Below, one piece after another: positions 28,935 through 45,043 of a stretch of DNA of 64,000 bases. The notes below the pieces were generated by a model, which made no database searches, was not told where the DNA came from, and saw nothing but the letters and a program-made list of their open reading frames with translations. Positions within the stretch are counted from its first letter, which is position 1; each line of letters starts with the position of its first letter. Source of the stretch: Gammaproteobacteria bacterium (GTDB lineage Bacteria > Pseudomonadota > Gammaproteobacteria > UBA6429 > Thiohalophilaceae). A program made the position numbers and the translations under genes. The stretch is from the NCBI GenBank assembly GCA_029880855.1, contig JAOUNS010000005.1:145130-209129 (forward strand). Reading direction: 5' to 3'.

Positions 28935-29909
28935 TTACTTTTCAAGAACAAACCATTCAGGATTTTTTACTTTCCTGTACCGACGGTTAAATTTTTTGTC
29001 TTTCAGCAAAAATCCAGGCGCAGTATCAGTTTGTTTGAAACAGAAACGCTTCGGTAAATGACTATACAAGGAACGAGGAGGTTTTGCATAACGAATATGT
29101 TTTACCTGACTTCCTGTATCGGCACTGTGAAAATATATTGCACCAACACCGAGTTCGTTCCTTATAAAGTCAATAGCAGCGGATAACACAGCCTCATCCC
29201 AGATTTTCTGATATGGTTGAATAACATGGCGACAATAATGCATTATATTGTCTATACTTCCGTTAGCCCCATACCACTCCGGCATCTTTCCGGTTGCTGC
29301 TTTGTACCGAATCACATCCTGCTCCAGCTCTTTTGCCTGTCTTACCCAATCACTTTGTACCTCTTCAATTAAGGCCTCATTCATAGAAAAATCAAGATCT
29401 ATACGCGCCCAGGCCAGGGTCTCACGTTTAAATGGGCGCACACTCCAATCAAGTATCGGATGTGAATAACTGTTCAACAGTTGCTCATACTCTGGCTTTA
29501 CCAGTTTTTTATAAACGCCATCGTGTTCATTGGAAAAGTTCAACTGCAAAACAAGGTTATACCCATCACGGGAAGTTTGATCATAATCATGACGCGAACA
29601 ACCCCACCGATCTACTGTCAGGACAAAATGATGCATTTCTTCCTTCCAATAGTCGGCAATCAGATTATGGGTCAAACACCCGTTACCCGCCCATGCCAGG
29701 ACTGATTTCACCACGGGTTTATCCAATAAAACCGAGAAACCTGACTTGCGAATATCAGCAATTGTCTTACCATCACCAACAAAATGATCCAGTAACATCA
29801 ATGCATATCTGTCCTTAAAGTAGCGAAACAGTGTCCGTTCATCAGGCAGACAGGCAATAATTTCATCCAATTCATGTTTATTCATTGTCCATGTCCTGTA
29901 ATAAATCAA
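28935..29909 (-). CDS. Hypothetical protein (no recognisable domain)
   Basis: 324-aa ORF. Likely start at MNKHELD (29885). Lower GC, upstream of rtcB. Confidence 0.5.
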   Translation of the reverse strand: MIYYRTWTMNKHELDEIIACLPDERTLFRYFKDRYALMLLDHFVGDGKTIADIRKSGFSVLLDKPVVKSVLAWAGNGCLTHNLIADYWKEEMHHFVLTVDRWGCSRHDYDQTSRDGYNLVLQLNFSNEHDGVYKKLVKPEYEQLLNSYSHPILDWSVRPFKRETLAWARIDLDFSMNEALIEEVQSDWVRQAKELEQDVIRYKAATGKMPEWYGANGSIDNIMHYCRHVIQPYQKIWDEAVLSAAIDFIRNELGVGAIYFHSADTGSQVKHIRYAKPPRSLYSHLPKRFCFKQTDTAPGFLLKDKKFNRRYRKVKNPEWFVLEK

Positions 29910-29922
29910 ATTTCAATTCCTG

Positions 29923-31365
29923 TTATAAATGTCGCGACAACATCAAATTCCGTTCAGCTATCCAGCGACGTATAACAGCCATTTCACGTTCAGTTGCCAG
30001 GCGGTTACGCAAACCACGGATTTGATAAACCGTCCTGTTTGTATTACGCACCTCAATGGTCAACAACTTCATCTTTGTCGTCCTATCCTGCATTTCCAGG
30101 CTCCAGATCGACGTATTGCCTGAATAACAGTTACTCGCATAGGTTGCGACACAGTGGCCCAGTTTGCGTCCTTCGTCGATCAACTCATCACTGCTGAGTA
30201 ACTCACGGAACAACCAGGTTTTCAGGTTCTTTCCCTTTTCAGTTCCTTCCACAAACTGATAGTCATGAACCCTTGACTTAACCCACTGCAACTTACCATG
30301 ACGTGTCGCCTTGCCAAGACGGGTATGCCAGTTATCCACCTGACGTAACAGCGACTCGGGAGTACGTCCACGCATGGTAAAGTTTGGTTGCTCAGGCCCT
30401 TCTTCCTGTGCCACACCGCGCGCAATAAAAACGGTGCGTGTTTCATACTTCTGATTCCAGATGTAATCAATAATCGGATGATAATGACTGGTATCCAGCA
30501 TGGGATTCTCAATAAAGAATCGCAAGACACTCAACCAAAACTCATCATCCCGAAAATCACGCACCAATCTGGTTTCCACCACTGCATCGGCTATCCGTTT
30601 GTTTCCACCCAGTGCACATATCTGTGCCCAGCGAAACGCACTCTTCACATCATACCTATCCGGCGCCAGGGTAAAATAATGCGCCATCTTTTTCGTCATC
30701 CTGACAGGCAGATCATTTGCAGCACGGATGTTCTTCCCTTCCCCCAGATGGATATACCAGCGAGCCTCGGTCAACTTTACATCCTGCCAGGCACTGTCCA
30801 TAAAAGCCGGTACCGGATATTTGGCAAACAAATGTCTGGCCAGCGAGGCAAACTGACGACCGGCATTGTGTGTATTGGGAGTCCATTCCGAAATCGGCCG
30901 TACCCACTTGCCATACATCTGCACCATGCCGGCAACGCCCTTGATATAGTCAACATGGTTCATCAATTTGGTCTTCTCATCCAGCATGATCAACACATCG
31001 CGCAAGAGCTTTTTGTTCCCGACACGATTAAACCCGTTGCGTATCGCGCCTATGGTTTCACCCGCTGATTCATAGCCCGATAACTTACCTGAAAAAAGGT
31101 CGATAATCAGGTTACTCATTCTTCCCTTTTGCTTGCGATACTTCATCTTTCTCTTCGCATACTGCATTCTAAAATGGGAATATTCCAGGTGCAGTTCCGC
31201 CTCACTCTTGTTAAGCGTGGCGCTAAAGCCTTGATCCATGCACCAGTCCAGGTATTCATCCATAGACTTAAATCCCATGGCACGCGCATACATCATGGCT
31301 GTCGCCTGACGCTCATCCCTGCTTCCCTTGTTTTTACGTTTATGCGCCATGGTTAAATTCCTCAT
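29923..31365 (-). CDS. Hypothetical protein, PcfJ-like (C-terminal GHCV motif region)
   Basis: 480 aa. C-terminal KLGHCVATYASNC resembles the PcfJ-like family seen on conjugative and phage elements. Assignment is tentative. Confidence 0.45.
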   Translation of the reverse strand: MRNLTMAHKRKNKGSRDERQATAMMYARAMGFKSMDEYLDWCMDQGFSATLNKSEAELHLEYSHFRMQYAKRKMKYRKQKGRMSNLIIDLFSGKLSGYESAGETIGAIRNGFNRVGNKKLLRDVLIMLDEKTKLMNHVDYIKGVAGMVQMYGKWVRPISEWTPNTHNAGRQFASLARHLFAKYPVPAFMDSAWQDVKLTEARWYIHLGEGKNIRAANDLPVRMTKKMAHYFTLAPDRYDVKSAFRWAQICALGGNKRIADAVVETRLVRDFRDDEFWLSVLRFFIENPMLDTSHYHPIIDYIWNQKYETRTVFIARGVAQEEGPEQPNFTMRGRTPESLLRQVDNWHTRLGKATRHGKLQWVKSRVHDYQFVEGTEKGKNLKTWLFRELLSSDELIDEGRKLGHCVATYASNCYSGNTSIWSLEMQDRTTKMKLLTIEVRNTNRTVYQIRGLRNRLATEREMAVIRRWIAERNLMLSRHL

Positions 31366-31424: not shown

Positions 31425-32576
31425 TTAACCTGACTGCAGGTTGATACGAACGGTATCTTTCATGATCCCGTCCAGACCACCGAATACAGTCAGCCTGTCC
31501 ACTTTCTCGGTTACCTTTTCCAGAACTTCCAGTTCCTTCAAACGCATTAGAGTCGGGTTGTCTTCCATCAGTCGTGCAGTGTTCAGCAGTGAACGAGTCG
31601 CTGCTGTTTCTTCACGACGCTTGATGACATTGGCCTGCGCCACTTTTTCAGCCTCAACCACCTGGTTAAGGATCTCCTTCATGTCACCCGGCAGAATGAC
31701 ATCCTTGACACCGACGCTGCGCACTTCAATACCGAACTCGCTGATCTTTTCCTTCACTGAGTCAAAGATCACACGATCCAGTGCATCCTTTTCACCCAAC
31801 AGGGTATCCAGAGTGCGGGTACCTACTGCCTGACGCAGGGCAAACTGCATTTCACGATAGACATAGTCATTCATGTTTGACAGCTTGCTACGCGCAGCCA
31901 CCGGATCAGCGATCTGGTACTGTGCGGTCAGGTTAACGCGCAGGCTAACCTTGTCCTTGCTCAGGATCTCCTGTCCCTGAACTTCCATGGCCTGCAAACG
32001 CAGTTCAATCTGTTCAACCTTGATGTTACGGTTGAACTTCCAGAAGGCGTACAGCCCCGGCTTCAGTACATCAAGCAACTTGCCGTCAACAATCAGCAGA
32101 CCGGCATGATTGTCAGCCACTTCACCGGCAGTGACATAGTTAATCACTTCACGCGGCATGCTGTTCATACGCGCATGAGCGATCAAACGTGCCTTGTCCT
32201 TTGCCAGTGCGAAGTCATGTTCAATGTTCACGACTTCAACTTTTACATCCACCAGTCCCTTCCAGTACAACTGGCGAGTTCCCGGCGCCAGAATATCGGC
32301 CAGCTTGCCATTCTTGTAGACCAGACCGACTTCATATTCACCCAGCTCAACGAACTGGAAATACTGATCGACCAGATCTCGGTGCTCTTTCACCAATACA
32401 TCAAGGTATGGATGATTGAACTCTGCAACAGTCAGGTTATGAACCTCAACCGCAATACGACCGGTCAGATCAAATATACGGTAGATGCCCGGTTCAAGAA
32501 CCTTGACCACATTACGATCTTGCATATACACACCACGTTCATGTTGTGCGATAACGATACGCTTTAGTCCGAACAT
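31425..32576 (-). CDS. SPFH/band-7 domain protein (slipin-like)
   Basis: Likely start MFGLKRIV (32576) with an AAGGAG SD 8 nt upstream. Two SPFH-like repeats and a C-terminal coiled-coil (EAEKVAQANVIKRREETAATR). Confidence 0.65.
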   Translation of the reverse strand: MFGLKRIVIAQHERGVYMQDRNVVKVLEPGIYRIFDLTGRIAVEVHNLTVAEFNHPYLDVLVKEHRDLVDQYFQFVELGEYEVGLVYKNGKLADILAPGTRQLYWKGLVDVKVEVVNIEHDFALAKDKARLIAHARMNSMPREVINYVTAGEVADNHAGLLIVDGKLLDVLKPGLYAFWKFNRNIKVEQIELRLQAMEVQGQEILSKDKVSLRVNLTAQYQIADPVAARSKLSNMNDYVYREMQFALRQAVGTRTLDTLLGEKDALDRVIFDSVKEKISEFGIEVRSVGVKDVILPGDMKEILNQVVEAEKVAQANVIKRREETAATRSLLNTARLMEDNPTLMRLKELEVLEKVTEKVDRLTVFGGLDGIMKDTVRINLQSG

Positions 32577-32844: not shown

Positions 32845-32921
32845 CGTTTCCCTGTGGTGGTGCTCACCGGCACCAACGGGCGGAGTCGAACCGCAAGCCT
32901 TTCGGCCTTTGCCATAGACAG
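32845..32921 (-). other. tRNA-like fragment or pseudo-tRNA (T-arm-like GCGG-AGTCGAA-CCGC but no foldable acceptor/anticodon arms); possible att remnant
   Basis: Has a T-loop consensus and a GC hairpin (GCCTTTCGGC), but the spacing to any CCA/acceptor does not fit a cloverleaf. Confidence 0.3.
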
Positions 32922-32997
32922 CGTGATAGGCTGGTCTGAAGAACGGGGATTGAACCCGTAACCCACTGATTATGAGTCAGTTGCTCTCCCAATTGAG
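32922..32997 (-). tRNA. tRNA-Met/Ile2 (anticodon CAU), canonical D-loop (GG) and T-loop (UUCAAUC); G1 opposite G72
   Basis: Cloverleaf folded by hand. Acceptor tcttcag, T stem ACGGG/CCCGT, anticodon stem ACTGA/TCAGT, loop CTCATAA. Confidence 0.7.
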
Positions 32998-33164
32998 CTA
33001 TCTTCACTGGTGCAATTGATCACTCATCGCTTTGTATACACATTGCTATCCCGTCAGGTGAGCGTCTGTGCACAGGTCAGGCATACAGAACCTGAACCGC
33101 TAAGCTAAATCAATGTATCAAGAGCTTCTGAACGATGTGTTAATTCAACACAAAGTTACAATTC

Positions 33165-33191
33165 TTTATGTTTAACGTGTGGCCAGCTTAA
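33165..33191. repeat. Perfect 11-bp-stem palindrome GTGTGGCCAGC-ttaa-GCTGGCCACAC
   Basis: Read directly from the sequence. Lies downstream of the HNH gene between two tRNAs. Confidence 0.5.
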
Positions 33192-33220
33192 GCTGGCCAC
33201 ACGAGATACAAAGGATCACC

Positions 33221-33291
33221 TCCTGTTACTGTAGGGTGGGCATCGCCCACCAATCCAACCTCAACCAAGTTTTTTTTTCGGTGGGCAATGC
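33221..33291. repeat. Compound inverted repeat GTAGGGTGGGCAT...ATGCCCACCCTAC enclosing two GGTGGGC/GCCCACC hairpins and a T9 run
   Basis: The outer 13-nt arms are exact reverse complements, and the inner hairpins are GGTGGGCATCGCCCACC and GGTGGGCAATGCCCACC. Confidence 0.5.
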
Positions 33292-33310
33292 CCACCCTAC
33301 ATTCATGTTG

Positions 33311-33874
33311 TTAAAACATATCACGACGTTCTTTAGTGCACTGCGCCTTCAGAAACTCCATCTGGTCTGCCTGGATATGGCGATTTCGTAAAATCAGCCA
33401 TTCCGCATGGTTCGGTGTATAGGGAACCGCATGCAAACGCATATTGATTTCCTTTAACAACCGATCTGCCTTGCGTTGATTACATGCCTTACAGGCCGTA
33501 ATTACATTGGTCCAGACATCCTTGCCACCGCGTGACATGGGAACAATATGATCCCGAGTCAGGTGTTGGTTTCCCAGTGTGGTCAAGCAATACATACAGG
33601 TATGACCATCACGACGAAACAACTCACGATTTGTCAGTGGTGGTGTCACCGCATACTTTGAGTAACCTTGTATCCCCTTGGCGGCAATAATTGGATGCAC
33701 ATCCATATAGGAACGGGTATTACTCAGACGGTTCGTCCCACCATAAAATCGCATGGTCTGTTCACCAAGTGTCCATGCCACCTGATCACGGGCATACAGC
33801 AATACGGCTTCCTGCCAGTCGATCCAGCCTGTGGCCTGTCCACTTTGACTCAAACGCAAAATCATGTGAGTCAT
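33311..33874 (-). CDS. HNH endonuclease (homing-endonuclease-like) embedded in the tRNA array
   Basis: 187 aa. HNH motif CMYC...HLTRDHIVPMSRGG...NVITACKACNQRKADR. AAGGAG SD 8 nt upstream. Confidence 0.8.
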   Translation of the reverse strand: MTHMILRLSQSGQATGWIDWQEAVLLYARDQVAWTLGEQTMRFYGGTNRLSNTRSYMDVHPIIAAKGIQGYSKYAVTPPLTNRELFRRDGHTCMYCLTTLGNQHLTRDHIVPMSRGGKDVWTNVITACKACNQRKADRLLKEINMRLHAVPYTPNHAEWLILRNRHIQADQMEFLKAQCTKERRDMF

Positions 33875-33938
33875 TTCGTCTACTCCTTTGTTGTATCGTT
33901 AATAGTTAGCCCATTAACAATTGGGAAGTGTTTAAAAA

Positions 33939-34028
33939 TGGCGGAGAGAGTGAGATTCGAACTCACGGCAGGTTTTAACCTACTCCTCGTTAGCAATGAG
34001 GTGCCTTAAGCCACTCGGCCATCTCTCC
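33939..34028 (-). tRNA. tRNA-Ser (anticodon GCU), type II long variable arm
   Basis: CCA encoded. T stem GTGAG/CTCAC with loop UUCGAAU. Long variable arm. Anticodon loop TTGCTAA. Confidence 0.7.
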
Positions 34029-34032
34029 ATAA

Positions 34033-34196
34033 AAGGTGCGTTCGGTCAGGGTATTACGCACATCCATGTGCTCCACCCTTCGGGCCAGCCTCCGGCTGTT
34101 CAAAATTGCTCCCGGCAATTTTGTCGAACTGACACTCCATAAAGGACCCAAATTTTAAGTTTGGTGCGTTTGCCAATTACGCCACGAACGCATGAA
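34033..34196. ncRNA. Structured repeat element, copy A (hairpins GCACA-tcca-TGTGC, CCC-ttcg-GGG, CAGCC-tcc-GGCTG, CAAAATTGC-tcccg-GCAATTTTG; ends complementary)
   Basis: An approximately 90-nt core is shared with copies B and C, with compensatory base changes in two stems. No ORF. Confidence 0.5.
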
Positions 34197-34198
34197 TT

Positions 34199-34271
34199 TG
34201 GCAGGGGATCCTGGATTTGAACCAGAAATGCAAGTGTCAAAGACTTGTGTGTTACCGTTACACTAATCCCC
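34199..34271 (-). tRNA. tRNA-Gln (anticodon UUG)
   Basis: CCA encoded. Acceptor aggggat/atcccct. T stem with G-U. Anticodon stem CAAGT/ACTTG with loop CUUUGAC. Confidence 0.7.
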
Positions 34272-34281
34272 TTTTATAAAT

Positions 34282-34358
34282 TGGTGCGCTCCCGGGGAGT
34301 CGAACCCCGAAAAACCTGGGTCTAAGCCAGGTACGTATGCCAGTTCCGTCAGAAGCGC
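34282..34358 (-). tRNA. tRNA with Leu anticodon UAG but type-I (5-nt variable loop) architecture, discriminator A73
   Basis: T stem CGGGG/CCCCG with loop UUCGACU. Anticodon stem CCTGG/CCAGG with loop CUUAGAC. Variable loop UUUUU. Confidence 0.55.
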
Positions 34359-34365
34359 ATTAAAT

Positions 34366-34441
34366 TGGTCGTGCCCCCTGGACTTGCACCAGGCACTCCG
34401 AGCTTATGAGGCTCGTGCTTTTCTTGCTAAGCTAGAGCACG
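34366..34441 (-). tRNA. tRNA-Met/Ile2 (CAU), non-canonical class: T-loop UGCAAGU, D-loop AGCAAGAA lacking G18G19
   Basis: D stem GCTT/AAGC, anticodon stem CGAGC/GCTCG with loop CTCATAA, T stem CCTGG/CCAGG, all folded by hand. Confidence 0.6.
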
Positions 34442-34495
34442 TTGGGTCGCTACGCACAACTCTGTGTTCTCGCGACATAAGTACATCCATAAAAA

Positions 34496-34571
34496 TGGAC
34501 ACGCGGGTCAGTGTTGCACCGACATAGTCCTGGTTTGCAATCAGGTACATTTCTAACTCTGCCACCGCGTG
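34496..34571 (-). tRNA. tRNA-Cys (GCA), non-canonical class: T-loop UGCAACA
   Basis: Acceptor cacgcgg/ccgcgtg perfect. Anticodon loop TTGCAAA. The D-arm is poorly canonical. Confidence 0.5.
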
Positions 34572-34592
34572 ATGATTTGGCACCCCGGGCAG

Positions 34593-34624
34593 GAATCGAC
34601 AATTTTGTCTGGAACAAAATTGGT
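34593..34624. repeat. Short hairpin repeat copy 1: GAATCGACAATTTTGtctggaaCAAAATTGG
   Basis: 8-bp stem CAATTTTG/CAAAATTG. A near-identical copy lies at 36843-36874. The stem equals the element A-C hairpin in the opposite orientation. Confidence 0.5.
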
Positions 34625-34740
34625 CATCGCGATAGCGATGCCTGTAAGGCACAGGTCATGGATGACCTGTGACAGCCCACACCAATTGTTTTGGAGGCAA
34701 TTGTTCTGCCATTAAACTACCGAGGCATTAACGAGATTAA
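34624..34740. other. Structured non-tRNA spacer (hairpins CATCGC-gata-GCGATG, CCTGT-aaggc-ACAGG, GGTCATGGATGACC)
   Basis: No T-loop and no ORF. Shares the CATGGATG-core hairpin with 34954-34971 and 36899-36918. Confidence 0.35.
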
Positions 34741-34745
34741 ATATT

Positions 34746-34821
34746 TGGTACACCCGGTAAGATTTGAACTTACATCATTCCGGTTAAAAGCCGGAAGCTT
34801 TACCAATTAAGCGACAGGTGC
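34746..34821 (-). tRNA. tRNA-Lys (UUU), canonical
   Basis: T stem GTAAG/CTTAC with loop UUCAAAU. Anticodon stem TCCGG/CCGGA with loop CUUUUAA. D-loop AATTGGTA. Confidence 0.75.
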
Positions 34822-34830
34822 ATTAAAAAT

Positions 34831-34906
34831 TGGACTCCCTGACCTGATTCGAACAGGTATCTCAAGCTTCGTAAACTAGTATTCTGATCCATTGAACTAC
34901 AGGGAG
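34831..34906 (-). tRNA. tRNA-like gene with perfect acceptor and T-arm (ACCTG-ATTCGAA-CAGGT) but unfoldable anticodon arm; possible pseudo-tRNA
   Basis: Acceptor ctccctg/cagggag pairs perfectly. No 5-bp anticodon stem can be drawn around ...ACTAGTTTACGAAGCTT... Confidence 0.35.
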
Positions 34907-34914
34907 TTGGTTGG

Positions 34915-35070
34915 TCGCGAAGGGTGAACGGCGGGATAGGAGCCGTGAACGCCAGGTCATGGATGACCTGGCTGGACTTTGTAATAACTACATGGATGTA
35001 GTTATTACAAAGTGAACCTTCACCTTCCTGGGTAAAAGCCAGGTGTGCTATCTATTACACCAGCGACCGA
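34915..35070. other. Structured spacer containing a perfect 17-bp hairpin (CTTTGTAATAACTACAT-gg-ATGTAGTTATTACAAAG), a CATGGATG hairpin and complementary ends
   Basis: Read from the sequence. The ends GGTCGCG...CAGCGACC pair like an acceptor stem, but there is no T-arm. Confidence 0.4.
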
Positions 35071-35080
35071 AAAATTAAAT

Positions 35081-35156
35081 TGGCACGCCTGGCAGGAGTC
35101 GAACCCACAACCGTTCGGGTAGAAACCGAATGCTCTTCCGATTAAGCTACAGACGT
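35081..35156 (-). tRNA. tRNA-Arg (UCU)
   Basis: T-loop UUCGACU. Anticodon stem TTCGG/CCGAA with loop TTTCTAC. D-loop AATCGGAA. Confidence 0.65.
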
Positions 35157-35171
35157 GTAGTGTCGTGCTGT

Positions 35172-35247
35172 TGGCGCACCTGTGAGGACTTCAACCTCAA
35201 CCTTCCATCTTCGGACGATGGTGCTCTTGCAATTAAGCTACAGGCAC
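35172..35247 (-). tRNA. tRNA-Arg (CCG), non-canonical: T-loop UUGAAGU (G56) with D-loop AAUUGCAA (C19)
   Basis: T stem TGAGG/CCTCA. Anticodon stem CCATC/GATGG with loop GUCCGAA. Confidence 0.6.
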
Positions 35248-35255
35248 ATTTAATT

Positions 35256-35354
35256 TGGCGGAGAGACAGAGATTCGAACTCTGACACCTGCTCCCGCAGG
35301 CCCTCTGTTTTCAAGACAGTCGCCGCTACCCAGACTCTTTCGGCTTACCTCTCC
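35256..35354 (-). tRNA. tRNA-Ser (UGA), type II; D-arm region unusually long
   Basis: T stem CAGAG/CTCTG with loop UUCGAAU. Variable-arm hairpin CCTGC-tccc-GCAGG. Anticodon loop CUUGAAA. Confidence 0.55.
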
Positions 35355-35360
35355 ATAATT

Positions 35361-35435
35361 TGGTCATCGCCATCGGAATTGCACCGATACCTTCTGTATG
35401 TAACACAGATGTTCTGCTGTTAAACTAGGCGACAT
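35361..35435 (-). tRNA. tRNA-Val (UAC), non-canonical class: T-loop UGCAAUU, D-loop AACAGCA
   Basis: T stem ATCGG/CCGAT. Anticodon stem TCTGT/ACAGA with loop GUUACAU. Confidence 0.6.
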
Positions 35436-35442
35436 TTATTTC

Positions 35443-35619
35443 TTAAGCATAGGGCCGAATCAAATCCAGCAATTCATCCAGTTTTGGGTTATTCCTGTTT
35501 TCGATCCAGGCATTGGCCAATATCCAGCGAAAATTTGCCGGTAAAGGCGTTATCCGGTTGTCAGGAATACGTAGCTGACGACACAAGCGTTGAAATTTGT
35601 TTAACTCGATATTATTCAT
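35443..35619 (-). CDS. Small ORF (58 aa, MNNIELNKFQRLCRQLRIPDNRITPLPANFRWILANAWIENRNNPKLDELLDLIRPYA) inside the tRNA array
   Basis: Perfect AGGAGG SD 6 nt upstream of the ATG. It fills the spacer between tRNA-Val and tRNA-His, and is below the 60-aa cutoff of the ORF track. Confidence 0.45.
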   Translation of the reverse strand: MNNIELNKFQRLCRQLRIPDNRITPLPANFRWILANAWIENRNNPKLDELLDLIRPYA

Positions 35620-35651
35620 AAACTACCTCCTGTAAATTAGGCCAAAAAGAT

Positions 35652-35728
35652 TGGGTTGGCTGAACGGACTCGAACCGATATCGTCATGATTCACATTCAT
35701 GGGCTTTACCAATTAAGCTACAACCAAC
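35652..35728 (-). tRNA. tRNA-His (GUG) with encoded G-1 and discriminator C73
   Basis: Anticodon stem CATGA/TCATG with loop AUGUGAA. D-loop AATTGGTA. T-loop UUCGAGU. The extra 5' G pairs with C73, the His identity element. Confidence 0.75.
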
Positions 35729-35737
35729 ATTGAAAAT

Positions 35738-35815
35738 TGGTCCGTACAAAAGGATTCGAACCCTTGACCTCCTGGCCCCAAACCAGGCGCTCTTCGCAGA
35801 CTGAGCTATGCACGG
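35738..35815 (-). tRNA. tRNA-Pro (UGG)
   Basis: T-loop UUCGAAU. Anticodon stem CCTGG/CCAGG with loop UUUGGGG. 10-nt D-loop without GG. Confidence 0.65.
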
Positions 35816-35821
35816 ATAATT

Positions 35822-35897
35822 TGGTACCTCGATCTGGACTCGAACCAGAAACGCCCGATTATCGGTCGAGTGTTTTACCAATTAAACTATCAAGGCT
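35822..35897 (-). tRNA. tRNA-Ile (GAU), C33 in anticodon loop
   Basis: T stem TCTGG/CCAGA with loop UUCGAGU. Anticodon loop CCGAUAA. D-loop AATTGGTA. Confidence 0.6.
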
Positions 35898-35900
35898 TGG

Positions 35901-36047
35901 GGAACCGGACGGGATTACTTCGTACATCCCTGTACTTCGCCCTGCGAACCAGCCTTCGGCTGTTCAAAATCGCTCCTGGCGATTTTGTCAAACCCGCACA
36001 GACCAGATTGAAGGTCTGGTTGCTTTGACCAATTTGCATACCGGTTC
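35901..36047. ncRNA. Structured repeat element, copy B
   Basis: Same core as copy A, with compensatory changes (GTACA-tccc-TGTAC; CAAAATCGC-tcctg-GCGATTTTG). Ends GGAACCGG/CCGGTTC are complementary. Confidence 0.5.
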
Positions 36048-36053
36048 AATAAA

Positions 36054-36129
36054 TGGCGGGACCGAAGAGGCTTGAACTCTCACCACCCTGATCGACAATC
36101 AGGTGCTCTACCAATTAAGCTACGACCCC
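36054..36129 (-). tRNA. tRNA-Asp (GUC), canonical
   Basis: T-loop UUCAAGC. Anticodon stem CCTGA/TCAGG with loop UUGUCGA. D-loop AATTGGTA. Confidence 0.7.
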
Positions 36130-36178
36130 ATGGTGAATTGGCGAATAGGTTTGTTAAATCACACTCAAAGAATGTTAT

Positions 36179-36322
36179 TTAACAACCCCACTCTCTTTTC
36201 AGTTTCTGTTTATCAGTCCGACGTTTGGACCGTTCAGATTTTTCATGCACACCACCTTTTCGCATCAGTGGATGGTCATGCAAAGGGTTGCGTGGTTTTG
36301 ACACGCGATCTTTTGCTTTCAT
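36179..36322 (-). CDS. Small basic ORF (about 47 aa, MKAKDRVSKPRNPLHDHPLMRKGGVHEKSERSKRRTDKQKLKREWGC)
   Basis: GGAG lies 7-8 nt upstream of the ATG. It sits in a 230-nt tRNA-free spacer and could equally be non-coding. Confidence 0.25.
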   Translation of the reverse strand: MKAKDRVSKPRNPLHDHPLMRKGGVHEKSERSKRRTDKQKLKREWGC

Positions 36323-36360
36323 CTTACTTCTCCGTGGTTAATTAAAGTTGCAAAAAATTG

Positions 36361-36655
36361 GTGGACGGGACGGGGCTATTTCGCACATCCATGTGCTACA
36401 CCCTTCGGGCCAGCCTTCGGCTGTTCAAAATTGCTCCCGGCGATTTTGTCGAACCCGCATCAAATGAGTACCCGGGCATTACTCCAGGCATGGAACATCT
36501 TGGGAAACGCGCACCAGTTGAGACCCGTTACCATAAGCCGCGAACCTGCATCCGTAAACCCGTGGATATTCTCAGTTAACCCATTCAGGATATTACTCCC
36601 CACCATAAGCTAACCGTTTTTTGGTGAGCATTTCCGTTTATGCTACCTGCCCATA
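36361..36655. ncRNA. Structured repeat element, copy C (long form, about 295 nt)
   Basis: The 5' 100 nt are nearly identical to the copy A core. The 3' 190 nt are unique. Confidence 0.5.
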
Positions 36656-36659
36656 AAAT

Positions 36660-36735
36660 TGGTGGAGCTGAGAAGATTTGCACTTCCAACATCCTGCTTG
36701 CAAAACAGGCACTCTACTAGTTGAGTTACAGCCCC
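36660..36735 (-). tRNA. tRNA-Ala (UGC) with G3-U70 identity pair; non-canonical class (T-loop UGCAAAU, D-loop AACUAGUA)
   Basis: Acceptor ggggctg/cagctcc gives G3 opposite U70. Anticodon loop UUUGCAA. Confidence 0.7.
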
Positions 36736-36742
36736 TTAAAAT

Positions 36743-36830
36743 TGGTGGATTGCCCAGGATTCGAACCTGGATACGTCAGAGACTCCTGATTTACAGTCAG
36801 GTGGTGCCGCCCCGTCGCACCGCGCAATCC
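36743..36830 (-). tRNA. tRNA-Tyr (GUA), type II
   Basis: Acceptor ggattgc/gcaatcc perfect. T stem CCAGG/CCTGG with loop UUCGAAU. Anticodon stem CCTGA/TCAGG with loop CUGUAAA. 11-nt D-loop. Confidence 0.7.
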
Positions 36831-36842
36831 AAATAAACTATG

Positions 36843-36874
36843 CGAATCGACAATTTTGCCTGGAGCAAAATTGG
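36843..36874. repeat. Short hairpin repeat copy 2: GAATCGACAATTTTGcctggagCAAAATTGG
   Basis: Near-identical to 34593-34624. Confidence 0.5.
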
Positions 36875-37340
36875 ACGCACGCAATGCGCCCGAAGGGCAA
36901 AGGCCATGGATGGCCTTTGTCAACTTACAAGCCAGAGGCGACGAGGTTACAACTCGTGGGGCTCACCATCTGCCCAACACATCCATGAAAATCAAAGGCT
37001 GAGACTACACCTTTAGCGCAACACCTTTTGTCGGATTACCACCCTCCGTGCGAGGAGAGTGTTGCCGCGTATCCACTTAAACCAACCCGAAGGTTGCGCT
37101 TAAGTAATATTGCATGGCTGCTTTTTTTAACGTGTAGCGATTCACGTGTACCGTAGCGTCTACTCGATATACGTCTTACCGTGTACCTTGCGGGCACTAA
37201 AGAGGAGCAACCTCACCGTGCAGTTGTATATCAATATCCTTTGGCTTGCGGCCGCCGGATCACCTGCCTTCTCTCGCGAGGGCAGGATTAAGCCATTTTC
37301 GACTCTACAGCAGGACGCGTCTTTGCGTTTTTACCTTACG

Positions 37341-37411
37341 GTGAAATCTCGGGAATCGAACCCGAACCAAAACAGGCTAAGTGTTTCGCTCTACCATTGA
37401 GCTACATTTCA
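37341..37411 (-). tRNA. Second type-I tRNA with Leu anticodon UAG; CCA not encoded; G7 opposite G66
   Basis: Canonical D-arm TAGCTCAATGGTAGAGC. Anticodon stem AAACA/TGTTT with loop CUUAGCC. T stem TCGGG/CCCGA with loop UUCGAUU. Confidence 0.5.
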
Positions 37412-37875
37412 AACCTATCAGGATGTGCGCGTCCTGGTGGTTTCATACTGCTTTAACAGTACAAAATGCCACACACCCAATGTCTTTCCACTGTCGTGTA
37501 CTTAACCATGTTTCGAGATATTGTCCCTGATTTTGACACCAGAGCCTTTACCTCTAACATTGCACAGCGCCCTTGTTTACGAGACTCGGACTAACCGCAC
37601 TACTGCTTGCTTCTCGTTGTTCACAACGTTGCCCCCGGTGTTGGCTGGCGACCAACGTCCCATTGCCCCCTTTTCAGGTACGCAATGGTCATACCGGCGT
37701 GCTTACCAACTATCTCCAGCCGACGCTGAAGACTTTGGAAGCGCAGCTTGTCTGAATTGACCTGTCCGTAAAGACAGGTGAAGGGTTATAGGAGACCACT
37801 TCTTTTTCGATATTGCTATCGATTATCGTTGTCAGACCAACACACTTTTTATGTCCGTGCCGGACAATTCAAAAT

Positions 37876-37950
37876 TGGCTCCCGGGGCTGGACTTGAACC
37901 AGCATACAACTGCTTAACAGGCAGGCCACCTACCAATGGTGCACCCAGGA
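37876..37950 (-). tRNA. tRNA-Asn (GUU)
   Basis: T stem GCTGG/CCAGC with loop UUCAAGU. Anticodon loop CUGUUAA. D-loop ATTGGTA. Confidence 0.65.
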
Positions 37951-37956
37951 ATTAAA

Positions 37957-38084
37957 TTTGCTGCAACGGGATCCTTGCTTTGGACTCCTGTCCTCTCGCG
38001 ACATTCGTACATCCCTGTACATCGTTCCGACCTATCGACATCCTGTTCTTATAACAGGCGCTCTACCAACTGAGCTACCGTTAC
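37957..38084 (-). other. Degenerate or interrupted tRNA-like gene: canonical 5' half (D-arm TAGCTCAGTTGGTAGAGC; anticodon stem CCTGT/ACAGG with loop UAUAAGA, UAA-like) but an about 50-nt insert carrying the element hairpin GTACA-tccc-TGTAC where the variable/T region should be
   Basis: The acceptor halves gtaacgg / gcaacgg pair with one G-U. The T-arm is not canonical. Confidence 0.3.
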
Positions 38085-38090
38085 ATTTCG

Positions 38091-38246
38091 TCATACACAT
38101 TGTTATACGGGCCGGGTTTCCCCACCCCGGCTCCCGAAAGTTGGTTCCGCTTTACTTACCCTCGCCTTGTCAGGCAGTAACGAGTAACAAAACAACAGGT
38201 CCGGAACCCTGCCAGGTGCTGCCACACCTCCGTATAACAATGTGTA
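38091..38246. mobile_element. MITE-like or structured element bounded by perfect 18-bp inverted repeats ATACACATTGTTATACGG / CCGTATAACAATGTGTAT
   Basis: The terminal inverted repeats are read directly from the sequence. The interior carries nested hairpins GCCGGG/CCCGGC and GGTTCCG/CGGAACC. Confidence 0.4.
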
Positions 38247-38254
38247 TAGAAAAT

Positions 38255-38328
38255 TGGAGCGAGTACAGGGATTCAAACCCTGACCAGGAGGTTGGAAGCC
38301 TCGCATGCTATCGTTACACCATACTCGC
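38255..38328 (-). tRNA. tRNA-Gly (UCC), T-loop UUUGAAU, D-loop without GG
   Basis: Acceptor gcgagta/tactcgc perfect. T stem CAGGG/CCCTG. Anticodon loop CUUCCAA. Confidence 0.6.
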
Positions 38329-38526
38329 AATAAAGGGGGCATTACCGATAGCAATGCCATACCAACTCCTGGTATGAGACGCGTCGAAGGTTTTAAAAGA
38401 CGCATCTCCCCAAAGCGTAATGCTTCATGCACTACGCGTATAAACACTTCCCAAATTGTTAAAGAGCATTACCGACCATGACATTTCACAATCGAATTTC
38501 CCGGAGGGAAATTATTCGGGGCATAA

Positions 38527-38558
38527 AAAAACCCCGTTAAGCAGATGCCTAACGGGGC
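38527..38558 (-). terminator. Rho-independent terminator on the minus strand
   Basis: Stem CCCCGTTA/TAACGGGG with a 10-nt loop and a T7 run on the minus strand. Confidence 0.6.
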
Positions 38559-38620
38559 CTGGTTTTACTCCCGCGGAAGGCATCTTTTTCAAGCCTTCCG
38601 CATAAATTCAATACGAAAAG

Positions 38621-38803
38621 CTAGCTCATACCGAGATCACTCGCATATGATTTAATCTGTTCATCAATATTGGAGAAATGACATTCAGCAAAACGCACAT
38701 TTCTGCCAAGCAGCTGTGTATGGGCGGCCGGACGTATTTGTCCCACCCCGTTCATACCGGGCCGTGCAGATAACCAACGATTTGTGCGATAGTTGTGTTG
38801 CAT
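38621..38803 (-). CDS. Small ORF (60 aa), divergent from the XRE regulator
   Basis: GGAG 6 nt upstream of the ATG. No known domain. Confidence 0.3.
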   Translation of the reverse strand: MQHNYRTNRWLSARPGMNGVGQIRPAAHTQLLGRNVRFAECHFSNIDEQIKSYASDLGMS

Positions 38804-38914: not shown

Positions 38915-39508
38915 ATGTCGGACAAGAAGAACCCAACCGCCGTCCAAATCGGGCAACGTATCAAACAAGCCCGAAAAATGGCCGGTTTCGAAACCGCCGC
39001 ACAACTATTGGAAGAGATACCAGAGTGGGGAACCGGGAGATTAGGGAATTATGAAGCAGGGATATCCTTGCCTTCTCCGGATGATATCAAGCTTATTTCA
39101 AGAGTTACCGGCTCCTCCCCTTGCTGGATTATGTTCGGTCTTGGACCGATACGCGCATCTGGACGTGATTTACAGGCTATCCGCCATCAGAATCTGGTTT
39201 ACGTTTTTGAGGGCTGCCGTGGAGAGCGTGGCGCCATTACAAGCTTCCTGAAAGCGGTCGGTCTGTCCCGCAGCAAAATTGATGAGCATCTTGATAACCC
39301 CTTTCTGGCCATACCGGATCGGCTGGCCCGCAAGTGCGAGATATTTGCTGAACGGAAATCCGGTTGGCTGGATGAACAACATGTAGAATCTGATCCGGTC
39401 TGTGCAGCATTCCCGGATGAGATGCGCAGGGTGATGGAGATCTATTCCAACCTGAGCGGAGAGAAACGCGAACTGTTTTTAAAAATGGCGGAAGTGTTTG
39501 TTGAATAG
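38915..39508 (+). CDS. XRE-family (Cro/CI-type HTH) transcriptional regulator with an uncharacterised C-terminal domain
   Basis: N-terminal IGQRIKQARKMAGFETAAQLLEEIP... is a typical HTH_XRE. Confidence 0.65.
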   Translation: MSDKKNPTAVQIGQRIKQARKMAGFETAAQLLEEIPEWGTGRLGNYEAGISLPSPDDIKLISRVTGSSPCWIMFGLGPIRASGRDLQAIRHQNLVYVFEGCRGERGAITSFLKAVGLSRSKIDEHLDNPFLAIPDRLARKCEIFAERKSGWLDEQHVESDPVCAAFPDEMRRVMEIYSNLSGEKRELFLKMAEVFVE

Positions 39509-41286: not shown

Positions 41287-42066
41287 ATGCCCATCCCCAA
41301 ATTTCTTTTGTTACTATTAATCAGTACAACCTTATTTCTGTCTGCTACCACCGTTGTTGCTGCGGACAGGTGGACCTTCTCTACCGGCGTGGATTACAGC
41401 CAGGGTGACTATGGCGCAACAATAGATACAGAAATCTGGTACATCCCGTTTGCAGTCAAGCTGGAACAGGCCGATATGGTTTACAAGCTCACCGTACCAA
41501 TGCTGGCCATGTCGGGTCCAGGCAATGTAATCGGTGTTGATGCAGTGCCCGGCACCGGCAACCCCAATGAACGACATTCAGAAGCCGGCATGGGTGATAC
41601 GGTGGTGGCCGTGTCCAAAGCATTATTACCTTATCAGCCGGGCAAGCTGTTTCTGGAACTGACCGGCAAGATCAAGCTTCCTACGGCAGATGAGACACGG
41701 GGACTGGGCACCGGAAAAATTGACTACGCCATTCAGATCGATCCTTTTTACGGTATTCGCAAGACCAGTCTTTTTGCCACGCTGGGTTACAAGCTGCAAG
41801 GCGATCCGCCAGACATTACATATCGCAATATTTTGTATTATTCGCTGGGCATCGACTATGCGTTTACAGAGCAGATCGGCGCAGGTCTGATTTATGATTA
41901 TCGACAGGCCGGTACCGCCGGTGGAATTGCGCCGGAGGAACTGACCGTTTATCTACATCGAAAACTCGATAATTCCAGGAAACTGCTGATCTATCTGCTA
42001 CATGGCTTGAGTGACGGCAGCCCGGATATGGGACTGGGAATTAATGTGAGTTACATCCTTAAGTAA
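41287..42066 (+). CDS. Putative outer-membrane beta-barrel protein (MetA-pathway/transporter-like family)
   Basis: Signal peptide, alternating beta-strand pattern and C-terminal aromatic-rich strands. Confidence 0.5.
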   Translation: MPIPKFLLLLLISTTLFLSATTVVAADRWTFSTGVDYSQGDYGATIDTEIWYIPFAVKLEQADMVYKLTVPMLAMSGPGNVIGVDAVPGTGNPNERHSEAGMGDTVVAVSKALLPYQPGKLFLELTGKIKLPTADETRGLGTGKIDYAIQIDPFYGIRKTSLFATLGYKLQGDPPDITYRNILYYSLGIDYAFTEQIGAGLIYDYRQAGTAGGIAPEELTVYLHRKLDNSRKLLIYLLHGLSDGSPDMGLGINVSYILK

Positions 42067-42958
42067 AACTCCCGGCAATTCGGCTTATTTCACGCAATGC
42101 CTTCAGGGCCGCATCCTGATCCACAACACAACTGGAAAGATCACCGTAGTACTGCTCAAGACATTGTAATAACAAGGTTTGTATTTTTCCTTCATCCGGT
42201 TTGTACGGCAAGTGGCAGGACGTATAAAGGCTTTCCAGTGACTTTTCCTTATCGGCAAAATGCTGTTCTATCCTGTCAATCGACCAATCTCCATCACGTA
42301 TGGACTTCAGTTGCTCACGGTTCCTTTCCAGATCGATATCACCTTCTGTCATTATCTGTTCCACCTCATCCAGCAACCGTACAACGTGGTAGGCAAATTT
42401 AACATCATAACCAAATTCTTCGATCATACCCTTGCGCTTGCCCTGCGGTTGTTTTGTTTTTAGCTTGCGCATTTGTGCAAATGCATAACCTTTAAACTTG
42501 TGCCATGCCCCTTTGTGCAGAAACAGTCGGCGACTTTCCCGAACCATATCGCCAATATCGGTGGCGAACAGTACGCATCTCTGTGGCACGAACAAACTGT
42601 CGATCATATTTGGATTGTTTTCCATGCACAACCGGAAATACTTGATGATGGAATAGATCGCCAAATCATATTCTCGCCCTTTGCCTCCCAGGGCGGTATT
42701 GTCCATGATATGGTGCATCTGAAATTGTTCGAAACGCGGTCCAGGCGTGGAGAATCCTTCAATCTCTCCACGCAAATGGGGAAAGACATAATCCCGTAGC
42801 GGAATACAAAACCCGTACACATCCATATCAGACACATCGGTACTGACGCCATAGGCCATGGAGCCCATGATCACTTCATATTGCATCCCGCCGGATAAAT
42901 AGGGTGGTGCCGATTTAATCAACCCCTTCTTATGCAGTTCAGCGACAATGCTTGCCAT
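42059..42958 (-). CDS. Pol-beta-superfamily nucleotidyltransferase, PF10127-like (divergent paralog)
   Basis: GSMAYGVSTDVSDMDVYGF fits G[GS]x9-13DxD. Last gene of a 9-gene minus-strand operon. Confidence 0.6.
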   Translation of the reverse strand: MASIVAELHKKGLIKSAPPYLSGGMQYEVIMGSMAYGVSTDVSDMDVYGFCIPLRDYVFPHLRGEIEGFSTPGPRFEQFQMHHIMDNTALGGKGREYDLAIYSIIKYFRLCMENNPNMIDSLFVPQRCVLFATDIGDMVRESRRLFLHKGAWHKFKGYAFAQMRKLKTKQPQGKRKGMIEEFGYDVKFAYHVVRLLDEVEQIMTEGDIDLERNREQLKSIRDGDWSIDRIEQHFADKEKSLESLYTSCHLPYKPDEGKIQTLLLQCLEQYYGDLSSCVVDQDAALKALREISRIAGSFT

Positions 42959-42970
42959 GCCCTAACTCCT

Positions 42971-43765: not shown

Positions 43766-43773
43766 TGTCAAAC

Positions 43774-44337: not shown

Positions 44338-44705
44338 TGCTGATCTTGCTCATACTTTCCAATTACGGCTATTGTTCCAACTATGTTGGCATTCAGTTCA
44401 GGTAATTCCTCCGCCGGGATCCACCACTCAGTATGGTGCGCAGCGCCAACCTGTTGAACCGAATATTTATCCATAAAGGATTTCCTTACCTCGAACCGGG
44501 TAACAAATCCAACACTACTCTGTTTTACATTCCATTTTTCGGCAATCTCTCTGGCATATTGCTCGTTGGTTACCGGATAAAAGACAGGCTGTTCAGGCAA
44601 CCGTGGCGGCCATGCTGTATAACCACTCGCCTCCACAAGTTTTAGTTCGTTTGGTCCGGTAGGACGATACAGGGTAATTGTGTCTTCCTGCATGTCGGTT
44701 GTCAT
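44334..44705 (-). CDS. Hypothetical protein
   Basis: Start at MTTDMQ (ATG at 44703-44705) overlaps the upstream stop as ATGA. Unknown fold. Confidence 0.45.
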   Translation of the reverse strand: MTTDMQEDTITLYRPTGPNELKLVEASGYTAWPPRLPEQPVFYPVTNEQYAREIAEKWNVKQSSVGFVTRFEVRKSFMDKYSVQQVGAAHHTEWWIPAEELPELNANIVGTIAVIGKYEQDQQ

Positions 44706-44980: not shown

Positions 44981-45043
44981 AAGTTACACCATATTTTAGA
45001 ATCACACTTGTCGCTTACATCAGATAAGATTAAGGAGTTAATG

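Follow-up and report, generated by a model that had tools for sequence, protein, structure and literature searches.

We analysed a 64,000-nucleotide (nt) stretch of the gammaproteobacterial contig JAOUNS010000005.1, hereafter the window, whose minus strand carries, from position 32932 to position 38328, a tRNA array unit made up of tRNA genes, decayed tRNA copies, a GOLLD RNA, an HNH endonuclease gene and small open reading frames (ORFs). At least six tRNA genes of this array carry, within their T-loop DNA, a four-hairpin element of 72-77 nt, here called the rtT-type element. In our judgement the segment likely represents the RNA genes at the core of a cassette for tRNA supply and RNA repair that a bacterial chromosome has acquired horizontally, and the element copies in it are likely to be selfish insertions. 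Coordinates refer to the window, and features lie on the minus strand unless stated otherwise.

T-loop insertions in the array and the family they belong to

ARAGORN called 20 tRNA genes between 32932 and 38328, every one on the minus strand, and the Rfam tRNA model recovered 19 of them at its gathering score with 39-68 bits; the tRNA-Tyr gave 39 bits with this model in a permissive scan. The dense, co-oriented array of the original prediction was thus recovered, and the list of anticodons given there was essentially correct, including the two CAU and the two UAG tRNAs. A 21st uninterrupted gene, tRNA-Ser(UGA) (35256-35354; 28.3 bits to the tRNA-Sec model), escaped ARAGORN because its oversized D-loop has 10-12 extra nt. 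Together with four interrupted genes that can be restored (see below), the total amounts to 25 tRNA genes, 13 of them with a U34 anticodon, and the array is U34-rich with roughly one tRNA per amino acid. The 21 uninterrupted genes in 5.4 kilobases (kb) correspond to 3.9 genes per kb, which lies above both limits in the definition of a tRNA array unit, at least 20 genes and at least two per kb (Tran 2016, PMC4758250).

Regions that are dense in tRNA genes and rich in repeats are hard to assemble, and the array could in principle be an artefact, a chimera of tRNA-containing reads. However, contigs from two other datasets (ENA ERZ27296342 and JGI 3300022221) were 100% identical to it over 21.2 and 14.9 kb, respectively, and diverged syntenic relatives exist. 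The identity with these contigs indicates that the array is no one-off misassembly and was correctly assembled, so that the chance of an artefact is virtually negligible. Neither a count below ten tRNAs nor a misassembly, the two outcomes that the original prediction had named against itself, was found.

A CCA is encoded in 19 of the 20 ARAGORN genes and is followed by an A/T-rich run. The exact 8-mer AAAATTGG occurs nine times inside the array; in the whole window it was found 11 times versus 4.9 expected, and one of 100 shuffles reached 11. The uniform AAAATTGG spacers claimed earlier therefore hold for the encoded CCA and the A/T-rich run that follows it, but not for the exact 8-mer. The shared processing signal proposed on this basis is likewise present as an encoded CCA plus an A/U-rich tract, but this is ordinary for gammaproteobacterial polycistronic tRNA precursors. 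In E. coli, RNase E is said to separate such precursors at A/U-rich sites, as Li and Deutscher in 2002 and Ow and Kushner in 2002 reportedly found.

We then deleted every possible internal segment of each gap in silico and reran ARAGORN. Excision restored four genes. In a tRNA-Glu(UUC) (35898-36047) and in a type II tRNA-Leu(UAA) (34035-34191) that ends in ACC-T, the insert measures 72 nt and separates T-loop position 58 from position 59. About 75 nt stand between T-loop positions 54 and 55 of a tRNA-Trp(CCA) (34578-34726), and the T-loop of a second tRNA-Lys(UUU) (34908-35069) contains an insert of about 84-89 nt. The Lys insert has two hairpins with UCCA loops, and its similarity to the element is weak (9.2 bits on the plus strand). 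A composite tRNA-like gene (36354-36652) has an acceptor, a D-arm, a T-stem and a CCA, and contains a sense element plus about 190 nt of extra sequence; a two-deletion scan of 36652-36354 yielded many conflicting anticodons, and the gene was left unassigned.

Two further genes are decayed, and comparison with related arrays, which were reached via homologues of s47, a 47-amino-acid (aa) ORF of the array, helped to recognise them. The first is a tRNA-Tyr(GUA) copy (36831-36990) whose T-loop is broken by an antisense element and whose 3' end is lost; its 5' 63 nt are 91% identical to the intact tRNA-Tyr of the related locus L248. The second is a Phe-like gene (37962-38085; 21.6 bits), the orthologue of a tRNA-Phe(GAA)-like gene of L248 that ends, by eye, in CCA. 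In the window its anticodon loop has drifted to UAUAAGA and its 3' end to GCA, and a partial element with a GUACAGGGAUGUAC hairpin stands in the place of the T-region. Single-deletion scans of 38095-37945 and 36995-36831 restored no tRNA. Altogether, about 28 genes are of tRNA type, and interruption or decay affects seven of them. The aberrant tRNAs noticed earlier do exist, but most of them are explained by insertions of the rtT-type element, which had gone unrecognised. Similarly, among the specificities reported as missing (Phe, Trp, Thr, Glu and type II Leu), Thr is the only one truly absent, whereas Glu, Trp and Leu are interrupted and the Phe-like gene is decayed.

The three sense inserts form one repeat family. 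A covariance model (R1), built from the element alignment and run unfiltered over all 64 kb, found five strong copies, all within the array. Three of them are in sense orientation, in the Glu gene (35916-35987; R1 match 35995-35906, 93.5 bits), the Leu-UAA gene (34052-34123; R1 match 34131-34042, 92.7 bits) and the composite gene (36377-36448; R1 match 36456-36367, 91.0 bits), and two are antisense, on the plus strand, in the decayed Tyr copy (36851-36921; R1 match 36843-36931, 59.2 bits) and in the Trp gene (34600-34674; R1 match 34592-34683, 43.8 bits). In element orientation the left junction reads GA/CAA in all five strong copies (the slash marks the junction), extended to TCGA/CAA in four of them and to TTGA/CAA in the Glu copy. 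Since the T-loop core TTCGAA is palindromic, insertion after TCGA gives an interruption at 58/59 or, on the other strand, at 54/55, as observed. The four-hairpin module of the window copies thus lies between the TTCGA and the AAUCC of the T-arm and is followed by the acceptor strand and CCA.

The element alignment comprises 86 copies with four hairpins. Paired cells made up 98.8% of it, versus 26-47% when the partners were slid, and 170 double-sided changes were counted versus 55 in shuffles, with none of 500 shuffles reaching the observed value. The search pattern prescribed the base of hairpin 1 and the whole of hairpin 2, which is the only reason for their invariance. G-U pairs (34) exceeded A-C pairs (6), which indicates that one strand is the folding strand.

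A pattern derived from the inserts matched at least 119 loci in the reference-genome collection, nearly all of them in Gammaproteobacteria and spread over many orders, often with several copies per genome. The idea that the element is private to this array was rejected since the genome scan found it widely; none was found in the viral contigs scanned for it. The Rfam RtT RNA family (RF00391) covers copies in one of these loci (L050), where they lie in repeats after a tRNA-Tyr, and R1 found four copies in the tyrT-tyrV-rttR region of E. coli K-12 with E-values of 1e-7 to 1e-4, each reading AGGUUCGAC...GAGUAAUCCUUCCCC. From these matches we conclude that the classical rtT repeats are diverged members of the element family. 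The fourth and weaker of the K-12 copies (15.3 bits) lies in the tyrT-tyrV spacer (L127, 1872-1957), the other three in or downstream of rttR. The link needed the covariance model: blastn with the element gave no match in E. coli, and the Rfam RtT model gave none in the window even at E-values up to 1. That model contains an inverted tRNA-3'-end arm, which the window copies lack.

Outside the related arrays the element is found in other surroundings. In-silico excision of 109 copies elsewhere revealed none (0/109) that interrupts a complete tRNA gene, so complete tRNA bodies bearing the element look special to these related arrays. The copies elsewhere lie in tRNA-3'-end repeats, in group II intron matches and, by eye and in both orientations, in IS91-like ORFs, and their flanks vary outside T-loops. 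In Ectothiorhodospira and related metagenome-assembled genomes (L004, L014 and L047, and others by shared flanks) the element occupies one fixed position in group II intron matches (RF02001), which implies that part of its copy number comes from hitch-hiking. An interpretation as a domain of the Ectothiorhodospira group II intron was discarded, the model alignment being a forced match of generic hairpins. Seven loci (L020, L080, L037, L078, L101, L106 and L113) carry it in IS91-like transposase frames near YRDGTTHV.F/EPLDF, as judged by eye. Both element orientations occur in these frames, and the L106 copy was counted at 71 nt, which would shift the frame. Several of the IS91-like copies carry the element at the same site, as if the interrupted insertion sequence still spreads.

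The related arrays provide empty and filled sites. The gene order s47, Asp, Glu, Ile, Pro, His, s58 (s58 being a 58-aa ORF) is common to L248/L249 and L252/L253, and no element at all was found in L252/L253. The Glu site is filled in the window and in L248 and empty in L252 (GCGGG-TTCGAGT-CCCGC), while the Asn site is empty in the window, filled in L248 and empty in L252. The Leu site is filled in the window (UAA), has no counterpart called in L248, and is empty in L252 (CAA). At none of these three sites was a target duplication found. In addition, the Ala gene of L248 holds, by eye, an antisense element, and the Ala gene of the window is intact. Such differences in occupancy between orthologous tRNAs are typical of an element that is, or until recently was, mobile.

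GOLLD RNA, protein genes and origin of the cassette

The original prediction had treated the segment as wholly composed of tRNA genes, without any ORF of 60 aa or more. Neither claim held: besides tRNAs, the segment contains a GOLLD RNA, a 187-aa HNH gene (33311-33874), two conserved small ORFs and a 170-nt hairpin RNA. The conserved 3' domain of GOLLD (RF02032) was matched at 36996-37481 over model positions 1-416 of 416, with 154.8 bits against a gathering score of 150 and an E-value of 1.9e-41 to 1.9e-42. The 394 nt between this match and the tRNA-Asn gene upstream (37482-37875) fold with z = -5.3 relative to shuffles and are the probable variable 5' half. Published GOLLD RNAs exceed 800 nt and have a conserved 3' region and a variable 5' region (PMC12286853); since the structured 394 nt fit this layout, we infer a 5' extension, so that GOLLD probably reaches to about 37875 and measures about 0.9 kb altogether. 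A tRNA with the anticodon UAG (37340-37411; found by ARAGORN, 54.4 bits with Rfam) is embedded in it and falls, in the Rfam alignment, in the unstructured linker of the GOLLD model. This tRNA has C37 and a 3' end that reads ACC-G, so its CCA is incomplete.

Using a pattern from the 3' domain, we found at least 120 GOLLD loci on viral contigs. A same-strand tRNA lies nearby in 53 of these 120 loci, three or more in 33, and a linker tRNA is present in 11, in one case with a UAG anticodon. The GOLLD of the window must be a divergent copy, because blastn gave no match between it and the 120 viral loci. The closest related arrays have no GOLLD. A cage formed by GOLLD and tRNAs in its linker have been described, the 14-mer cage being established for GOLLD env-38 only (PMC12286853).

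The array is flanked by protein genes that recur in its relatives. To its left lie genes for a band-7/SPFH protein of 383 aa (31425-32576), a PcfJ-like protein (29923-31350), which occurs only in this version of the cassette and has a homologue on a 299-kb viral contig, a 316-aa protein of no known family (28935-29885), which in relatives is always directly upstream of RtcB, and the RNA ligase RtcB itself (27464-28660; 398 aa, 443 bits, 81-89% identity in relatives). To its right follow a divergent helix-turn-helix (HTH) regulator of 197 aa on the plus strand (38915-39508), 73-75% identical and in equivalent position in L248 and L252, then three unrelated genes and two RlaP nucleotidyltransferase genes (42059-43888; 253 and 57 bits). 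Inside the array, the HNH endonuclease (Pfam HNH_5, 60 bits) is 72-73% identical in L248 and L252 and 44-51% identical on viral contigs. The two small ORFs within the array both have a ribosome-binding site: s47 (36179-36322) encodes a basic protein kept in related cassettes and on the phage contig L124, and s58 (35443-35619) is 64-69% identical in four related cassettes. A third, 60-aa ORF, s60 (38621-38803), precedes the array and is 37% identical in L248. No named family was found for s47, and its reading as an ArfA-like rescue factor was dropped, the motif having been seen by eye with no support from Pfam, NCBIfam or PHROG.

In L248 the same genes are contiguous, in the order divergent HTH regulator and s60; tRNAs with s47, s58 and HNH; a second RtcB, a tRNA and band-7; and the 316-aa protein, RtcB and two RlaP. 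The RlaP pair, contiguous with RtcB there, has moved to the other side of the array in the window. Between the window and L248 the cassette proteins share synteny and 37-89% identity, and L252 has most of them, with a phage-type integrase alongside. L250 (7158-9712) and L251 (1763-4391) hold just s47, s58, the 316-aa protein and RtcB, without an array. Thus s47, s58 and the 316-aa protein always accompany the 398-aa RtcB, even where a tRNA array is missing, which looks like an undescribed four-gene RtcB module. The phage contig L124 (IMGVR_UViG_3300038379_000927) carries 28 tRNAs together with s47, Ro60, RtcB and HNH, followed after the array module by Bro-N, AAA_24, PD-(D/E)XK and D5 primase genes. 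At 1524-3941 of this contig a Ro60/TROVE-vWA gene lies in the tRNA array with sub-threshold YrlA (48 bits) and YrlB (25 bits) matches, and RtcB and HNH come next; it is a phage-borne Ro60-Y RNA-RtcB unit within a tRNA array. In the window, Ro60/TROVE genes and Y-RNA matches were sought and none was found.

Co-oriented genes with an encoded CCA are also typical of gammaproteobacterial tRNA operons, and the array might for that reason be taken for a core housekeeping operon of the host. Against this, it offers about one tRNA for each amino acid, is interspersed with GOLLD, HNH and mobile elements, and has several non-canonical members. The mean GC content at third codon positions (GC3) is about 0.51 for genes at 25-48 kb, versus about 0.62 for the flanking genes, which are ordinary chromosomal genes, and relatives of the array lie beside an integrase or in phage contigs. 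A core operon is therefore extremely unlikely. The accessory array of mobile-element type that had been proposed from the sequence agrees with the array-unit density, the low GC3 and the location of these relatives. Homologues of HNH and PcfJ occur on viral contigs of 92-350 kb. The suggested comparison with a phage collection gave no close DNA match, and, as the flanks are chromosomal, a phage genome was rejected.

Other candidates in the neighbourhood were also set aside. PADLOC gave generic HNH matches alone, so no defence system was assigned beside the array. A 700-aa neighbour considered as Ro60 had no match in Pfam or PDB and shows a signal peptide and a C-terminus like that of outer membrane proteins; it lies outside the cassette since it is absent from relatives. 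The cluster at 42059-48156 comprises the two RlaP genes, NADAR, two unknown ORFs, a radical SAM protein and an ADP-ribosylglycohydrolase and adjoins NrtR and NadA; only its RlaP pair is common to L248.

Several further structures lie at the borders of the array. A leader (38330-38468) is conserved in L248 and L252, and a strong terminator-like hairpin (38529-38560) ends the s60 gene upstream of it. The 170-nt hairpin RNA (38085-38254; fold z = -6.1) has a closing stem of about 20 bp and is kept at the same place in L248 (9278-9430), within a region (9278-9619) that is 77% identical. Its closing stem shows compensatory changes, ACACATTG/CAATGTGT in the window versus GCACGTTG/CAACGTGC in L248. 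It matched no Rfam family and could be a new structured RNA or a miniature inverted-repeat transposable element. Its terminal sequence ATACACATTGCTATCC..., present at 38093-38115 (plus strand) and 38231-38248, has a third copy at 33036-33058 (plus strand), near the other end of the array. The latter and the inverted copy at 38248 would bracket nearly the whole array in the manner of terminal inverted repeats, though with 18 matches in 23 this may be chance. Two strong inverted repeats, one with 21-nt arms and no spacer (33169-33210) and one with 22-nt arms (33230-33301), separate the HNH gene from the last tRNA and could be a terminator or REP-like. No known ribozyme, intron or Y RNA was found with Rfam in the gaps at E-values up to 1.

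The uninterrupted tRNA genes, apart from Ser(UGA) and the tRNA embedded in GOLLD, begin with Gly(UCC) (38255-38328; ARAGORN, 56.5 bits with Rfam), followed by Asn(GUU) (37876-37950) and the type II Tyr(GUA) (36743-36830), both intact and called by ARAGORN. The next were called by ARAGORN and Rfam alike: an intact Ala(UGC) (36660-36735), Asp(GUC) (36054-36129), Ile(GAU) (35822-35896), Pro(UGG) (35738-35815), His(GUG) (35652-35727), Val(UAC) (35361-35434), Arg(CCG) (35172-35247), Arg(UCU) (35081-35156), Arg(ACG) (34831-34906), an intact Lys(UUU) (34746-34821), Cys(GCA) (34496-34571), a CAU tRNA (34366-34441) for Met or Ile2, by eye not initiator-like, a class I UAG tRNA with a short variable arm (34282-34358), Gln(UUG) (34199-34272) and Ser(GCU) (33939-34028). 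The last gene, after the HNH block, has the anticodon CAU (32932-33007; ARAGORN). Its orthologues read UUU in L248 (13554-13627) and AAU in L252 (10605-10680) on a common backbone with 85% mean column identity, an apparent anticodon switch as far as the sequences tell. The class I UAG tRNA, with a variable loop of 5 nt, is kept in three arrays (the window; L248, 11397-11472; L252, 8143-8219); as bacterial tRNA-Leu is normally type II, its identity is uncertain. Just past the last tRNA lies a 3'-half remnant (32869-32905) consisting of a T-arm and acceptor strand without CCA, 70% similar to the 3' half of Arg(UCU), which could be an old attachment site or a recombination scar.

Selfish insertions versus working RNAs

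The array is probably one co-oriented transcription unit. In the scenario that we favour, it would be transcribed as a single regulated minus-strand precursor that would be cleaved in the A/U-rich tract behind every encoded CCA, into pieces for maturation by RNase P and exonucleases. The tRNAs may then supplement or replace those of the host under translational stress or ribotoxin cleavage, RtcB and RlaP could reseal cleaved tRNAs, and GOLLD would, by homology, form a multimeric cage with tRNA attached. Phage tRNAs are accompanied by RtcB, RlaP and Ro60 (PMC7824862), and RlaP acts on damaged tRNA (PMC12776372). By analogy with the L-arrays discussed below, the nearby HTH regulator suggests conditional expression of the array. 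The rtT-type elements would be selfish mobile invasions tolerated by an accessory array, having entered after the TCGA core in either orientation and without target duplication. Some invaded genes keep a perfect cloverleaf after excision, and others have decayed.

A number of observations speak against parts of this scenario. Transcription, processing and aminoacylation of the array are all conclusions that we infer, a simple sigma-70 scan upstream gave a weak promoter-like site alone, and GOLLD is only about 5 bits over the Rfam gathering score, though its E-value is decisive. No phage structural or replication gene and no integrase was found in the 64-kb window, and mobility is deduced from relatives and composition. 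No transposase was linked to the element, whose co-occurrence with transposase genes was not analysed. As regards selfish DNA in particular, three anticodon-stem pairs (CCAGA/TCTGG versus CTAAC/GTTAG) and one D-stem pair of the interrupted Glu gene differ between the window and L248, and all four are fully compensated and paired. The acceptor stem of the interrupted Leu gene is fully paired as well, with three pairs differing from L252. If the insertions are old, such compensated stems would indicate continued selection on the cloverleaf. The excess of G-U over A-C pairs and the RNA ligases encoded together with the interrupted tRNAs also fit a function at the RNA level. The L248 Glu element is closer to the window Leu and composite copies (87-90%) than to the window Glu copy, so that independent insertion or gene conversion is possible.

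One such function would be splicing, in which the sense elements behave like introns that are cut out, the halves being rejoined by the co-encoded RtcB in a protein-dependent form of bacterial tRNA splicing. Exact removal of 72 nt gives a 7-nt T-loop and a cloverleaf accepted by ARAGORN in both Glu and Leu-UAA, RtcB is part of the cassette and a second RtcB is found in relatives, and both the compensated stems of the interrupted genes and the folding of one strand would be expected. However, of the five strong copies two run opposite to the tRNA, both orientations occur elsewhere inside IS91-like ORFs (by eye), and some invaded genes are decayed. No cassette protein is encoded in any of the 8-kb genome loci in which the element was found, and the minimal RtcB cassettes of L250 and L251 have no arrays. 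No splicing endonuclease family was found in the island proteins and no group I or ribozyme family at E-values up to 1, and the E. coli copies are part of rtT repeats and not of functional tRNAs. We therefore regard splicing as highly unlikely.

The tRNA-element chimeras might instead be functional products in themselves, rtT-like small RNAs on a tRNA scaffold that are processed by RNase P and CCA-dependent enzymes, in parallel to the GOLLD-linker tRNA. In E. coli, processing of a like unit yields RtT as a stable RNA (Rfam RF00391), the element is highly conserved with covariation and with one folding strand, and the interrupted genes keep their cloverleaf. But antisense and decayed copies exist, RtT itself has no known function, and occupancy varies between orthologous tRNAs of close relatives, which speaks for gain and loss and not for a fixed function; this makes the chimera explanation quite unlikely. 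Taken as a pair, excision of the sense elements with rejoining of the halves by RtcB at 58/59, or chimeras as working RNAs of the repair cassette, are unlikely. We know of no earlier T-loop tRNA splicing in bacteria, so that, if the interrupted tRNAs were indeed processed in this way, this would be the first known case. If either splicing or chimeras proved true, the 40-year-old E. coli rtT RNA would belong, in degenerate form, to a class of functional RNAs.

The whole array could also be left over from a former phage or island insertion, inert and in decay. This would agree with the seven interrupted or decayed genes and with the non-canonical tRNAs, namely the class I UAG tRNA, the Ser with the oversized D-loop and the GOLLD-embedded tRNA without a full CCA; moreover, published arrays are often poorly transcribed, according to the Anabaena trn operon study (PMC8421152). 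On the other hand, 21 genes keep good tRNA scores, tRNA stems show compensatory changes, and diverged relatives have kept the order of the array together with its small ORFs, its regulator and the repair genes, at 50-89% protein identity. The L-array of Anabaena is inducible and helps survival under translational stress (PMC8421152). We thus consider an inert relic improbable and retain the horizontally acquired cassette with selfish insertions as the favoured explanation.

Comparison with known systems

The invasion of complete tRNA genes by the element at the T-loop appears not to have been described in the searchable literature. Neither were rtT as a member of a widespread T-loop-targeting family, the conserved s47-s58-316aa-RtcB core, or GOLLD in such a cassette of a Gram-negative chromosome found there. 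For GOLLD, the cassette provides a defined context, compact and conserved, with tRNAs, RtcB, RlaP, band-7 and small proteins, in which it could be studied jointly with the accessory tRNAs. The E. coli rtT repeats acquire a place in a widespread, strongly structured family that targets T-loops, for which the related arrays offer natural empty and filled sites. Furthermore, tRNA scanners under-count arrays of this kind, with four to seven genes invisible here, which affects tRNA surveys of phages and islands.

Once archaeal non-canonical introns or bacterial group I introns are cut precisely out of a tRNA, its cloverleaf is complete again. The T-loop inserts share this property, and an RtcB-type ligase is encoded in the same genome, but there is no group I match, no splicing endonuclease was found, and the inserts occur in both orientations and in non-tRNA contexts. 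The palindrome-associated transposable elements (PATEs) derived from IS200/IS605 and the REP/RAYT systems are hairpin-bearing non-autonomous elements moved as single strands. Like these, the rtT-type element is small, with covarying subterminal hairpins, no terminal inverted repeats and a strand-asymmetric fold; target duplication was missing at the three compared sites, and within T-loops it adjoins a short fixed sequence. No cognate transposase was identified for it, however, its flanks vary outside T-loops, and many copies travel inside other mobile elements. With the rtT (rttR) unit of E. coli (RF00391) the window copies have in common a four-hairpin module in the T-arm that is followed by the acceptor strand and CCA. 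The E. coli unit, however, is a duplicated tRNA 3' end or minihelix after an intact tRNA-Tyr, whereas in the window complete tRNA bodies of several specificities are invaded in both orientations.

As regards the cassette, an Rsr(Ro60)-Y RNA-RtcB operon was reportedly described by Hughes in 2020 in Salmonella and relatives. The window resembles it in encoding RtcB together with tRNA-like non-coding RNAs, and L124 adds Ro60 and YrlA-like RNAs, but the window itself has neither a Ro60/TROVE gene nor a Y-RNA match. The array is similar to the Anabaena trn operon (Santamaria-Gomez 2021, PMC8421152) and to the Acidithiobacillus arrays (Tran 2016, PMC4758250) in having more than 20 tRNA genes that are probably horizontally spread and may be supernumerary, and differs from them by the addition of GOLLD, repair genes and T-loop elements. 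As in the tRNA islands of phages and jumbo phages, tRNAs are combined with RtcB, RlaP and ADP-ribose-processing genes (Iyer et al. 2021, PMC7824862), GOLLD adjoins tRNAs (Kretsch et al. 2025, PMC12286853), and a comparable module is present on L124. Unlike these islands, the window is devoid of phage structural and replication genes, and its cassette lies among chromosomal genes. Mycobacterium tRNA arrays likewise contain GOLLD and HNH (Behra 2019, PMC6582537), and the array shares with them a probable horizontal origin, at least 20 tRNA genes, a GOLLD with a tRNA or pseudo-tRNA inside and an HNH gene in the cluster; it is set apart from them by its apparently gammaproteobacterial host, by the attached RtcB/RlaP/band-7 cassette and by tRNA genes that are split by rtT-type elements.

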